From assembly GCF_051653945.1 (NCBI RefSeq), contig NZ_JBOFXD010000050.1:4475-68474 (forward strand): a DNA stretch of 64,000 nt, written 5' to 3'. This DNA comes from Cetobacterium sp. Lineage in GTDB: Bacteria; Fusobacteriota; Fusobacteriia; Fusobacteriales; Fusobacteriaceae. The first letter of the stretch is position 1, and each line of letters begins with the position of its first letter. The notes under the pieces are model-generated. The model had not been told where the DNA came from, searched no databases, and was given only the letters and a program-made list of their open reading frames with translations. This document shows positions 41,357 through 45,199 of this stretch, one piece after another. A program made the translations under genes and the position numbers.

Positions 41357-41384
41357 AAAAGGAAGAGTCGCAACTCTTCCTTTT
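41357..41384 (-). terminator. Intrinsic terminator after the RelA/SpoT-domain gene
   Basis: AAAAGGAAGAGT-cgca-ACTCTTCCTTTT. Confidence 0.7.
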
Positions 41385-42180
41385 ATTTGAATTTTAAATC
41401 CAACTCTCTGAAATTATCTTCTAAACCTTTTCCATTAGAAAACTCTTTTTTTATTTTTTTTATGAACATACCCATTTCGTCAGCACTTCCAACGATTCTA
41501 TTAAAAATACCTAAGTACTCTGTTATAATTGGATTATCAACATCATATGGGTATCTCATCAAGTGATCTATCTCACTCCAAGCCTCTTCAAAAACTGTTC
41601 TCACTTGTATTTCTACAAGTACCTCATCTTGCTTTGTAACTGGTACACCAATTAGATAGTGAACCGATCTATAACCATGATCTCTCACAATTATCTCACA
41701 ATCTAAGTCTTGAATCGTATTTTTCAAATCTTGGATATTGTAATCCCCTCGTCTAATGTTTATCTGAGGAGTTTCCTTTGTATCCCATAACTTCGTTATT
41801 TCGCAATGAATTCCACGCCAATCATCTTTAAATAGATGCAATACACGTATTCCTATAAGGTCAGTTATAATTTCTTTATAGTTTTCTACATTTATCCCAC
41901 GATCTGCATATTTGCGACCTTTTCTTATTATTTTTTCAACAAGATGTGTTGCTCTTTTTACTCTTCTTCTAACTGAGTGAACTCCTACATTATCAATTAA
42001 TTTAGATACAATATGTTCAGCTTCTTTTTCTAAATAAGGAACTAATTTTATATAGTCAGCATAAATTTTCATAAGCTCATCCCAATTAAGGCCAGTAGAG
42101 TTAAAATACTCCTCTGTTATACAGAAAGCTTTAAAAAATTCTTCCCTATCTATCTTATTATCTAATTTCAAATTAAACAC
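41383..42180 (-). CDS. RelA/SpoT synthetase-domain protein (small alarmone synthetase-like)
   Basis: RRVK, DLIGIR, GYRSVHY and EIQVRT..AWSEIDH motifs; no hydrolase or regulatory domains. Confidence 0.87.
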   Translation of the reverse strand: MFNLKLDNKIDREEFFKAFCITEEYFNSTGLNWDELMKIYADYIKLVPYLEKEAEHIVSKLIDNVGVHSVRRRVKRATHLVEKIIRKGRKYADRGINVENYKEIITDLIGIRVLHLFKDDWRGIHCEITKLWDTKETPQINIRRGDYNIQDLKNTIQDLDCEIIVRDHGYRSVHYLIGVPVTKQDEVLVEIQVRTVFEEAWSEIDHLMRYPYDVDNPIITEYLGIFNRIVGSADEMGMFIKKIKKEFSNGKGLEDNFRELDLKFK

Positions 42181-42184
42181 CTCT

Positions 42185-43180
42185 TTATAGTTTTCTAGGT
42201 ATCTTCTCTAATGAAATTTCACAAGTCTTTCGATAAGCTACTGCTTCAGTAGTTTTTATCTCTCTTTTTTCTACTGGAGTTATTGTAACTATTCTTTCTC
42301 TTATATTAAAGTCATTACCTTTAATAATGTGAACTCTTTCAAGAGATATTCTATCTTCTTCAATTAACTGAACTTTATCTAAATCACATCTAAAGTTTAC
42401 CCAACTCTGAAGTGTTGGAGTTTTATCAATAAGATTTAATAAAGCTAGAGAGTATAGTGAGTTCTCCTCTTGCAATAACTTCTCTTTCTTTATCTCCTCT
42501 AATCCTAAAATCTCTTTCTCTAATAAATCTAACTTCATAACCTCTATTCTATTTTCAAAAGCTACTTTACCAGTTACTAGTTTCCCACTTATTTCAATAA
42601 GCTGTCCCATAAAGATCTCTTTTAAAAGCTTTACATTAAACATAAATCTCTTTATATTGCTATATTGATATATCTTGTAGTAACAGTTATTTACTATTGT
42701 ATTAAAAGATCCATCATCTTTTAAGTCAATCTCTAAACCTAATTTAAACTCTCTGTTTTTTAGTTCTAAATATTTTTTTCTATTTATCTCAACTATTCTA
42801 CTATGACAGTCTTTCAAATTTAGTTGACCTATTTTTAAATCGGTAACTCCAAAAGTCTTTATCAGGTTTTGATTTTTCATATCTTTTATTGTAGAAAATT
42901 CAATTGGTAACCTATCCAATTTTAAAGAGCTATACCTTATCTCTAAAGCACTCTCTATTATTTTAAAATCTTCATTTTTAACTTCTAATACTTCTGGGTC
43001 TCTTATTTCTATTTCTTCCTCAATCTCTTCTGAACTCTTCTCTTCAGATTCAATTTCAACCTTTTCAGCAGTATCTACTACTACTTCTATAGTTTCATCT
43101 AAAATCTTATCTTCTACTATTTCATCAGAAATATCTGGAGTTACCGAAAAAGCTTTTTTCCAATATATGACTCTTTTAAT
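42185..43180 (-). CDS. Hypothetical protein; frame is open 87 codons upstream of the called TTG (acidic E/D/V/I-rich segment) with no canonical start
   Basis: Manual translation 43180-42920 has no stop and no ATG/GTG/TTG; GAA/GAT/GTA-rich codons look coding. Confidence 0.7.
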   Translation of the reverse strand: MKRVIYWKKAFSVTPDISDEIVEDKILDETIEVVVDTAEKVEIESEEKSSEEIEEEIEIRDPEVLEVKNEDFKIIESALEIRYSSLKLDRLPIEFSTIKDMKNQNLIKTFGVTDLKIGQLNLKDCHSRIVEINRKKYLELKNREFKLGLEIDLKDDGSFNTIVNNCYYKIYQYSNIKRFMFNVKLLKEIFMGQLIEISGKLVTGKVAFENRIEVMKLDLLEKEILGLEEIKKEKLLQEENSLYSLALLNLIDKTPTLQSWVNFRCDLDKVQLIEEDRISLERVHIIKGNDFNIRERIVTITPVEKREIKTTEAVAYRKTCEISLEKIPRKL

Positions 43181-43968
43181 TCAGATTCATCCAGTGGTGT
43201 TAAGCTAAGGTAACCCTTTAACTCTTTTAAAAACTCCTCTTCACTGTGCGGTAACAATTTTATTCCTAGCTCGTTTAATCTTTCAATTGTTTTTGTTTTT
43301 AATACATTTGAATTACTCACAGCATATATAACATCTTTCGGGTTTACATCTGTTAATACAACCTCTAACACATCTATAAAGTCTGAGTTATTTAAATCTA
43401 ATCCTAAAATTAGCGTCGGATAATTTTCTATATCCTCTTTTATATTTTTGAAAAAGTTTTTGTAAAAATCTAAAACTTTTAATTTTCTAAAATCTTGGAT
43501 AGAAACGAAAATCTTTTCATGTCTATTGACGTCACCAAGAATTTTATAATGCTTAACCTCTCCATTTGATGCTATTGGAAACTCTTCATCTGTAGGTAGT
43601 ATTTTTACTACTTTGTTGCAGTTTATATCGTCTAAAACTATATCATAATCTGTTGAAAAAACAGCATTAATCTTATTACTTTCAGAGAAAATATTTAACA
43701 CCTCTGCAGTTTCTCTGTTTGTTTCGTACAAATTTTTGATTTTTTTCAATAATGAACTTCTACTGCTAACAACTCCATCTAAATAAACTTGGCTAACTTG
43801 GAATAAAGAGTTTTCATCTCTTATATAGCCCTTTATATTTTCTTTCATATCTTTCATTAACAGTTTTGCTAACTCTCTTCTTGTTGGATATCCAGCGTTT
43901 CTTACTAAAAAATCCCCTAAAAAAAGATTAATTTTGTCTGTATCATTAAATTTATTGAAAAAACTCAT
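43141..43968 (-). CDS. SIR2-like (SIR2_2) domain protein with degenerate motifs
   Basis: LFLGDFL (for GAG), FSTDYD (for TTNYD), YKILGDV (for KxHG) and LILGLDL; RBS AGAGGTG. Confidence 0.78.
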   Translation of the reverse strand: MSFFNKFNDTDKINLFLGDFLVRNAGYPTRRELAKLLMKDMKENIKGYIRDENSLFQVSQVYLDGVVSSRSSLLKKIKNLYETNRETAEVLNIFSESNKINAVFSTDYDIVLDDINCNKVVKILPTDEEFPIASNGEVKHYKILGDVNRHEKIFVSIQDFRKLKVLDFYKNFFKNIKEDIENYPTLILGLDLNNSDFIDVLEVVLTDVNPKDVIYAVSNSNVLKTKTIERLNELGIKLLPHSEEEFLKELKGYLSLTPLDESELKESYIGKKLFR

Positions 43969-44110
43969 AGTAACACCTCTCTTTCTTTAAAAAATAAACA
44001 CTTTGGCAATATAAGTATATCTTAATTTCATCTATTTAACAAGTATATTATTTAAAAAAAATTAAAAAAAGCCCGTAAATAACAGTTTATTACTTACAGG
44101 CTATTAAAAT

Positions 44111-45166
44111 CTATTTAATTATAAAAGAACTTGCGATAACTTTTCCATCTTCAGTATATAATACTGCTCCTTGTCCTGGAGTAACAGCTCTTACGCTATC
44201 CTCTGTAAATAAAATCTCTATTGTATCTTTATCCACTACTTTTACTTTACATGAATGTAGTTTATCTCTAGAACGTGCTTTTACAAAACAATCTATTCCA
44301 TCTAACTCTTTTACATCCTCTACTAAAAATAGGTTAAGTTGATTTGCAACTAAGGTATTCTTCATAAGATCTTCGTTACTTCCAACAATGACTCTGTTGT
44401 TTTTTCTATCTAGCTCTATAACATAAAGTGGGTTTGCTGATGCTATTCCCAATCCTTTTCTTTGTCCTATTGTATAGAATGCTAATCCATTGTGTTTTCC
44501 TAAAACTTTTCCTTTTAGATTAACAATTTGTCCTGGCTTTCCGATTTTTCCACCAGTTTTTTCCATTAAAAACTCTTTTAACTTTCCATCTTCAACAAAA
44601 CATATCTCTTGAGAGTCTTTTTTAGCGTAAACTCTTACACCCAAATCTTTTGCTAACTCTCTAACAGCTGGCTTCTCCATTTTTCCAATTGGAAAAATAA
44701 TATATTTTAAATTTTCTTTTTTTATTTGAGATAAGAAATAAACTTGATCCTTATTCATGTCATCACCAATAGCTAATGTACCATCGATAATATTTGCATA
44801 GTGACCAGTTGCTAACGCTTCTGCACCTAACTCTTTTGCAAACTCAATAAGCTTTCCAAATTTTATTTTTCTGTTACAAACCATACATGGATTTGGAGTT
44901 CTTCCTGAACTATACTCATCTACGAAATAGTCAATAACCTCTTTTCCAAAATCCTCTGTTACATCTAAAAGATAGTGTTCGATACCTAAATCATCACATA
45001 TTCTTTTAGCATCCTTATCCTCTTCTCCACAAGTTTTCATTGTTACACCAAAAATTTTGTAACCTTGCTTCTTTAAAAGGTAAGCCACTGTAGAAGAGTC
45101 TACTCCTCCACTCATAGCTACTGCTATAACTTTGTTTTCATTCTCTTTATTAAACTCTAAGTTCAT
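44111..45166 (-). CDS. mnmA: tRNA 2-thiouridylase
   Basis: AMSGGVDSS, TPNPCMVCN, ATGHYA, KDQVYFL and TPGQ motifs; start at ATG 45166. Confidence 0.96.
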   Translation of the reverse strand: MNLEFNKENENKVIAVAMSGGVDSSTVAYLLKKQGYKIFGVTMKTCGEEDKDAKRICDDLGIEHYLLDVTEDFGKEVIDYFVDEYSSGRTPNPCMVCNRKIKFGKLIEFAKELGAEALATGHYANIIDGTLAIGDDMNKDQVYFLSQIKKENLKYIIFPIGKMEKPAVRELAKDLGVRVYAKKDSQEICFVEDGKLKEFLMEKTGGKIGKPGQIVNLKGKVLGKHNGLAFYTIGQRKGLGIASANPLYVIELDRKNNRVIVGSNEDLMKNTLVANQLNLFLVEDVKELDGIDCFVKARSRDKLHSCKVKVVDKDTIEILFTEDSVRAVTPGQGAVLYTEDGKVIASSFIIK

Positions 45167-45199
45167 AAATATTACCATCCTTAATAAAATATTCTATTA

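Follow-up and report, generated by a model that had tools for sequence, protein, structure and literature searches.

Evidence for programmed −1 ribosomal frameshifting, conserved across the Fusobacteriaceae, between a SIR2-like gene and a C-terminal domain of apparently novel fold in Cetobacterium

Among the closest described counterparts of the locus reported here is Escherichia coli dnaX, which yields tau and gamma. We analyzed a stretch of 64,000 nucleotides (nt) of Cetobacterium sp. DNA (NCBI RefSeq assembly GCF_051653945.1, contig NZ_JBOFXD010000050.1, positions 4,475 to 68,474; hereafter the window, to whose positions all locus coordinates refer), in which a gene for a SIR2-like protein overlaps a second open reading frame (ORF) in the −1 frame. 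These two ORFs very probably constitute one gene that is expressed as two isoforms, of 275 and a predicted 594 amino acids (aa), through programmed −1 ribosomal frameshifting. Like dnaX, the locus has the slippery heptamer A_AAA_AAG, a Shine–Dalgarno (SD)-like element about 10 nt upstream, albeit a weak one in the window, and a helix about 6 nt downstream; it is a chromosomal, non-mobile gene with isoforms that would have a common N-terminus, and AAG appears to be read only by tRNA-Lys(UUU). It differs from dnaX in that the shifted product is the long one and the gene family is unrelated, and whereas dnaX uses a local stem-loop, the 3′ arm of the Cetobacterium helix lies hundreds of nt away in coding sequence.

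The transposases of the IS3 family of insertion sequences (IS911, IS150 and IS3411, with products OrfA and OrfAB) are a second point of comparison. Their ORF A likewise has A_AAA_AAG close to its end, a few codons ahead of the 0-frame stop; the shift fuses two domains, the second ORF is without a start of its own, and the stimulators vary among members. The present locus is unlike them in being non-mobile and having no transposase domains. In IS3411-type elements, a second structure is found 44–104 nt downstream (PMC5009743), whereas in Cetobacterium the distant partner belongs to the main helix itself, lies up to 900 nt away and does not make an apical-loop/internal-loop contact. In the plant RNA viruses barley yellow dwarf virus, red clover necrotic mosaic virus and pea enation mosaic virus 2 (BYDV, RCNMV and PEMV2), the slip-site structure pairs with sequence far downstream and can couple frameshifting to downstream events (PMC5009743). 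The need for pairing with far downstream sequence is common to these viruses and to the helix described below, but the viral cases are eukaryotic RNAs with kilobase-distant untranslated partners and bulge-loop contacts, whereas the Cetobacterium case concerns a bacterial mRNA whose distant partner sequence is within the ORF that the shift opens. A 2016 review of recoding gives distant-acting elements only for plant viruses, IS3411-type elements (44–104 nt) and T7 gene 10. A search of the literature on frameshifting in connection with SIR2, Fusobacterium or Cetobacterium gave no relevant report. To our knowledge, only a few bacterial genes that are cellular and non-mobile have conserved programmed frameshifts: dnaX, cdd, copA, csoS2 and a number of predicted ones.

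The SIR2-like unit is on the minus strand, and its 0-frame ORF (43141–43968; 275 aa, the short isoform) ends ATT GGA AAA AAG CTT TTT CGG TAA. A preliminary description of this DNA had proposed a candidate −1 programmed frameshift, with A_AAA_AAG in phase three codons before the SIR2-like stop, a −1 frame without ATG, GTG or TTG above 42919 for 87 codons, and products of 275 and about 594 aa. These particulars were confirmed: the heptamer is at 43153–43159, in 0-frame phase and within the overlap of both ORFs, and the stop codon TAA is at 43141–43143, three codons 3′ of the heptamer. The −1 frame is open from 42185 to 43180 (331 codons without a stop), and the first of its ATG, GTG or TTG codons is the TTG at 42919, preceded by 87 start-less codons. 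A slip at the heptamer would join 272 residues of the SIR2-like ORF to 322 residues of the −1 frame (42185–43159), which gives the predicted 594 aa. The −1 part would begin with an acidic variable linker (about 43004–43152) followed by a C-terminal domain, the C-domain (42188–43003; 272 aa modelled).

The presence of A_AAA_AAG in such a genome carries little weight. The window contains 102 copies (79 expected) and the long ORFs of the genome contain 414 in phase (375 expected), so that the heptamer is not avoided, and with counts this near to expectation the heptamer alone is not beyond chance in an AT-rich genome. What is beyond chance is its conservation and its context. The assembly contains five genes for tRNA-Lys(UUU) and zero for tRNA-Lys(CUU), and from work on E. 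coli, A_AAA_AAG is known to be shift-prone when AAG is decoded solely by tRNA-Lys(UUU). Four near-complete relatives were searched for tRNA-Lys(CUU) with a crude pattern, which is a weak test; neither of the two matches was a tRNA.

Conservation was evaluated in a comparative set of 64 split loci, representing 48 distinct junctions, from Cetobacterium, Fusobacterium and other Fusobacteriaceae, with SIR2 identity down to about 26%. Of 22 other genomes of the genus, 18 had the C-domain, as did 8 of 14 genomes from the family's other genera. The first 18 loci examined, in which SIR2 identity fell to 36%, all (18/18) had the C-domain in the −1 frame, an in-phase A_AAA_AAG and exactly three codons to the 0-frame stop, and the same arrangement was found in more distant loci and in 37 metagenome loci. 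Over the 48 junctions, the in-phase heptamer was A_AAA_AAG in 42, A_AAA_AAA in 4 and A_AAU_UUU in 1 (L027), with no clear heptamer in 1 (L023), and the spacing from heptamer to 0-frame stop was three codons in 44 of 48. The frame relation was equally constant: the second ORF was −1 relative to the SIR2 ORF in 64/64 split loci. Among non-duplicate genome loci the relative frame was −1 in 26 of 27, the 27th being in frame, over more than 15 different spacer lengths, and among metagenome loci it was −1 in 37/37. Both the heptamer and the frame relation are direct observations. The L027 locus, in another genus (G032:C1, about 1167890–1167960), has A_AAU_UUU, a 6-nt spacer that includes the stop and a perfect 11-bp hairpin (−23.4 kcal), and it represents this recoding site in an independent form.

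Around the heptamer, synonymous change is strongly reduced. In a codon alignment of 15 Cetobacterium species, the synonymous difference fraction was 0.01–0.08 at codons 264–284, compared with about 0.3 gene-wide. This island lies inside the otherwise variable, indel-rich acidic linker, within which the heptamer and the next 30 nt are nearly perfectly conserved. Upstream, a purine-rich SD-like element, AAAGAG (43171–43176, minus strand), is located 11 nt 5′ of the heptamer, and its GAG codon is invariant in the 15 Cetobacterium species; the window has GAGT where relatives have GAGG. Across the family, such an element, 8–19 nt upstream and with anti-SD pairing of −4 kcal or better, was found at 69% of the 48 junctions versus 11% of background windows, a difference whose P value is overstated because the junction sequences are related.

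Downstream of the slip site, most lineages have a predicted RNA helix that starts 5–8 nt 3′ of the site. In other genera it is a local hairpin, which in the relatives tested starts at 5–7 nt, with z-scores of −3.3 to −4.9 and none of 200 shuffled sequences as stable in 6 of 7 tested. The hairpin arms vary between lineages, but complementarity is kept: GGUAAUAAUG/CAUUAUUACC, GGUAAUAUCU/AGAUAUUACC, GGUAGUAU/GUACUACC and UUGGUGAGGAC/GUCCUCACCAA. No local downstream structure was found in the window (z +1.24; −2.6 kcal by RNAalifold over 100 nt). A TCAGA/TCTGA hairpin 14 nt downstream was considered as a stimulator and rejected, being too weak and too far from the site.

In Cetobacterium, the pairing is long-range. 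The 5′ arm, UCGGUAACUCCAGA (43134–43147, minus strand, 14 nt), begins 6 nt after the heptamer and contains the stop codon, and the 3′ arm, UUUGGAGUUACCGA (42840–42853, minus strand), falls about 300 nt further downstream, where the C-domain's conserved motif K-T-F-G-V-T-D is encoded. The helix totals 12–14 bp, with a 12-nt stretch (I8) that is 100% complementary. All (25/25) Cetobacterium-type loci have this pairing, as does the sister genus (L022), the distance ranging over 144–900 nt, the 3′ arm being about 190–900 nt downstream in Cetobacterium. At one helix position, C-G has changed to U-A via U.G intermediates in at least three lineages, a second compensatory position has changed from A-U to U-A, and three further positions show wobble-compatible single changes. 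The helix was present in both the minimum free energy and the centroid fold of a 336-nt segment (z −4.3). As a control, we used an all-against-all window scan, a column shuffle being uninformative as most columns are invariant; in this unbiased scan of 1.65 million distant 12-nt window pairs in the aligned mRNA, the helix was the only pair with 12/12 positions paired in 15/15 species. On these comparisons, there is good support for the long-range helix as a conserved pairing, and we infer that it acts as a frameshift stimulator.

Two further features of the helix region were observed. A second GGTTACC site, at about 42905–42915 (minus strand) in the codons of K-L-D-R-L-P and about 240 nt after the heptamer, is complementary to the GGTAACC-type 5′-arm sequence and could be an alternative, shorter-range pairing partner. 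The last sense codon of the short isoform, the CGG (43144–43146) just before the stop, is used 79 times in 683,288 codons of long ORFs and is nevertheless invariant in Cetobacterium; ARAGORN identified tRNA-Arg(UCG) in the genome and did not find tRNA-Arg(CCG). The position of CGG in the helix 5′ arm may explain its retention. A second slip at U_UUU_CGG via this rare codon was rejected as not general, most species having C_UUU.

Several points weigh against programmed frameshifting at this site, or against the part assigned to the helix. Since in-phase A_AAA_AAG is not depleted genome-wide, the heptamer may by itself be a weak shift site; the lack of a CUU isoacceptor is provisional, as the tRNA set was taken from a fragmented assembly of 121 contigs. 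The SD-like element of the window is degenerate (−2.4 kcal versus −5.8 in L002), L023 has no clear heptamer and has a GTG start at −4, and lineages L020 and L026 have weak predicted structures. As for the long-range helix, the z-scores of the duplex in single sequences are modest, most of them between −1.5 and −3.6, and the metagenome sequence L051 has a single C.A mismatch. Coding constraint also acts on both arms, and a helix that has to close about 290 nt of mRNA under translation may form inefficiently in vivo.

The best-surviving alternative to ribosomal frameshifting, although an improbable one, is transcriptional slippage, in which RNA polymerase adds one A in the run and part of the mRNAs encode the fusion in frame for ribosomes that do not shift. 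A single extra A would yield exactly the −1 reading, and longer runs occur in some lineages (A8 in L038 and L041, A9 in L026 and L061–L064). The Cetobacterium run, however, is only A6, which is too short for efficient slippage by bacterial RNA polymerase. Moreover, the run is always in the X_XXY_YYZ phase, L065–L068 interrupt it (AAGAAAAAAG) and yet retain A_AAA_AAG, and L027 uses A_AAU_UUU. The helix 5–8 nt downstream and the upstream SD-like element are likewise stimulators of ribosomes and not of polymerases.

Marginally less probable again is that these are two separate genes, in which case the heptamer would be incidental and the C-domain ORF would be initiated independently, whether at a non-canonical start codon or through termination-reinitiation. 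Databases do annotate the SIR2-like gene and the C-domain ORF as two unrelated genes, with public gene calls of 230–319 aa for the C-domain hypothetical protein; in-phase heptamers are common in the genome, and an ATG or GTG overlaps the stop in L020, L021, L023, L037 and L040. Against this, the window offers no start for 87 codons, and no first −1 frame start is conserved among the orthologs, their positions varying between −64 and +233 nt counted from the stop. Use of the first possible start in the window would remove E80, I81 and S85, which are invariant in an eight-sequence alignment (A2), together with two strands and one helix modelled with a predicted local distance difference test score (pLDDT) above 90. 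The −1 frame is always open across the heptamer and the frame is always −1 whatever the linker length, and the heptamer with the next 30 nt is an island of near-perfect conservation in a variable linker.

Fused relatives also argue against two separate genes, and they were observed directly. A full HMMER search with the C-domain gave only 58 representative clusters, and the long homologs tested were all (10/10) in-frame fusions of an N-terminal SIR2_2 domain and a C-terminal C-domain; within the Fusobacteriaceae, L024 and L025 are in-frame fusions as well. In the tree, in-frame and split states are interleaved with at least five changes, and the split state is held through whole clades together with a shift-prone site. 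No informative A run was seen at the equivalent position of the in-frame fused L024, L042 and L025. The comparison of orthologs that had been proposed, as to whether they are fused, split with the heptamer or provided with their own start, thus yielded an in-phase A_AAA_AAR at 46 of 48 junctions, fused relatives and no conserved start, and it supports the candidate frameshift.

The least probable explanation, a lesion at the DNA level (an assembly error, a pseudogene or a phase-variable homopolymer switch), draws on the fact that homopolymer runs are common sites of indels, but 17 Cetobacterium species genomes, 8 metagenome contigs and several other genera show the same state, neither half has lost its open frame or its conservation, and A6 is too short for phase variation. 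An assembly error is ruled out by the recurrence of this state across dozens of independent assemblies. No in-frame Cetobacterium allele was found in these 17 genomes and 8 contigs or in a search of 5.8 billion proteins, and a search admitting proteins of 286–910 aa gave no Cetobacterium protein with a length of about 594 aa. The alternatives raised in the preliminary description, namely a homopolymer (A7) assembly error, phase variation and an indel downstream of a TTG at 43163, therefore did not hold; that TTG opens a +1 ORF of 16 codons.

For programmed frameshifting, we propose the following mechanism. Ribosomes on the SIR2-like ORF would reach A_AAA_AAG with lysine tRNAs in the P and A sites, and a fraction would slip back one base into the −1 frame, reading ...G-K-K-A-F-S-V-T-P... 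into the acidic linker and the 270-aa C-domain to give the 594-aa protein, while the remaining ribosomes would stop three codons on and release the 275-aa SIR2-only protein. One putative stimulator is the SD-like GAG(G), of which this genome has a weak copy, located 10–11 nt 5′ of the heptamer. The other would be the RNA helix, with a 5′ arm from +6 nt that includes the 0-frame stop; its 3′ arm in Cetobacterium would be distant, in the F-G-V-T-D codons of the C-domain, whereas the other genera would use an ordinary local hairpin at the same place. By analogy with tau and gamma of dnaX, both isoforms may be required in some ratio. More tentatively, and with somewhat less than even confidence, we suggest that in Cetobacterium the shift is driven by the long-range helix as a self-limiting, translation-sensing ratio device, since the 3′ arm is in the ORF opened by the shift: shifted ribosomes would melt the helix while translating the 3′ arm, and so lower the chance that the next ribosome shifts. 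We know of no such layout, with the 3′ arm inside the shift-opened ORF, in a bacterial chromosomal gene.

The 275-aa ORF matched Pfam SIR2_2 with 33.3 bits (cut-off 24.5), and its SIR2 domain had a profile match to ThsA (6lhx, E 5.7e-11). The AlphaFold2 model of this domain (pLDDT 82.6) matched the folds of ThsA, DSR2, Avs5 and KomC with template modelling (TM) scores of 0.6–0.67, and residues 258–275, the tail that contains the slip site, were predicted to be disordered. The protein resembles these defence SIR2 NADases in fold and sequence profile, and its organization, an N-terminal SIR2 domain with a C-terminal second domain, resembles that of ThsA. Unlike ThsA, it lacks the catalytic His: of 46 family members checked, 41 have Leu or Phe at this position and 5 have some other residue that is not His. 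YKMHGD of ThsA (H152) aligns with YKILGD here. The catalytic Asn (ThsA N112) is Asp in Cetobacterium, TTNYD of ThsA aligning with STDYD, and the GAG loop is GDF. With the catalytic His missing and the Asn altered, NADase activity appears doubtful from sequence, and the domain may be a His-less, probably non-NADase, module for assembly or ligand binding.

The C-domain was modelled with high confidence (pLDDT 92.9), and it appears to be a novel fold: there was no fold match in the PDB or BFVD (TM below 0.2) and no sequence match in Pfam, NCBIfam, PADLOC or PDB sequence profiles. The C-terminal SLOG domain of ThsA was not found by Pfam, PADLOC or fold searches of the C-domain. Nor was there a ThsB (TIR) neighbor, the flanking genes being mnmA and a rel-like gene. 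Also unlike the defence SIR2 systems, the locus is conserved, syntenic and core-like, operon-linked to the rel-like gene and outside any defence island. The helix, the SD-like element and the missing catalytic histidine go beyond the preliminary description.

The rel-like gene directly follows the C-domain ORF on the same strand (41383–42180; start GTG at 42180 or TTG 9 nt on) and encodes a small alarmone synthetase-like protein of the RelA_SpoT type (Pfam RelA_SpoT 1.8e-20; match to RelP 6ewz 1.2e-12). The presence of an SD sequence (AAGAGG) followed by TTG suggests that the true start is more likely this TTG, 9 nt 3′ of the listed GTG. The order SIR2, C-domain, rel is maintained across genera, with the rel-like gene directly 3′ of the C-domain ORF and an identity of 60–97%, compared with 25–97% for the frameshifted gene. 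Transcription of the unit appears to begin at a promoter-like site (44014–44042, minus strand; a consensus match only) and to proceed through the SIR2-like ORF, the −1 ORF and the RelA_SpoT gene to a palindromic terminator-like hairpin at 41357–41384, and the frameshifted gene may work together with the co-transcribed rel-like gene.

The gene directly upstream is mnmA (44111–45178, minus strand), which is followed by a terminator-like hairpin at 44070–44102; the promoter-like site after this hairpin suggests that the operon starts there, apart from mnmA. The mnmA product makes the 2-thio modification at U34 of tRNA-Lys(UUU), the tRNA that slips on A_AAA_AAG. The terminator between mnmA and the SIR2-like gene, and their adjacency in Cetobacterium only, make this probably a coincidence. 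At the other end of the SIR2-like gene from the slip site, an AT-rich inverted repeat pairs its first codons (43952–43967) with 43737–43752, about 200 nt inside the gene. This was the only other helix conserved at 11/12 positions in 15/15 species, and it may affect translation initiation.

On this reading, the locus adds a case of family-wide programmed frameshifting that extends from human-gut Fusobacterium to fish-gut Cetobacterium, and it puts right a systematic error of annotation, namely the calling of a SIR2 family protein and an arbitrarily started hypothetical protein as separate genes. The family also offers a natural series that combines one slip site with a hairpin 3′ arm about 20 to 900 nt away, and this series is a test bed for the effect of distance and of ongoing translation on frameshift stimulation. 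If the self-limiting helix device is real, it would fix the ratio of the short and long isoforms and perhaps also set translation of the downstream alarmone synthetase-like gene. For the family, the locus defines a His-less, ThsA-like group of SIR2 proteins fused to a domain of apparently novel fold and linked to an alarmone synthetase-like gene.

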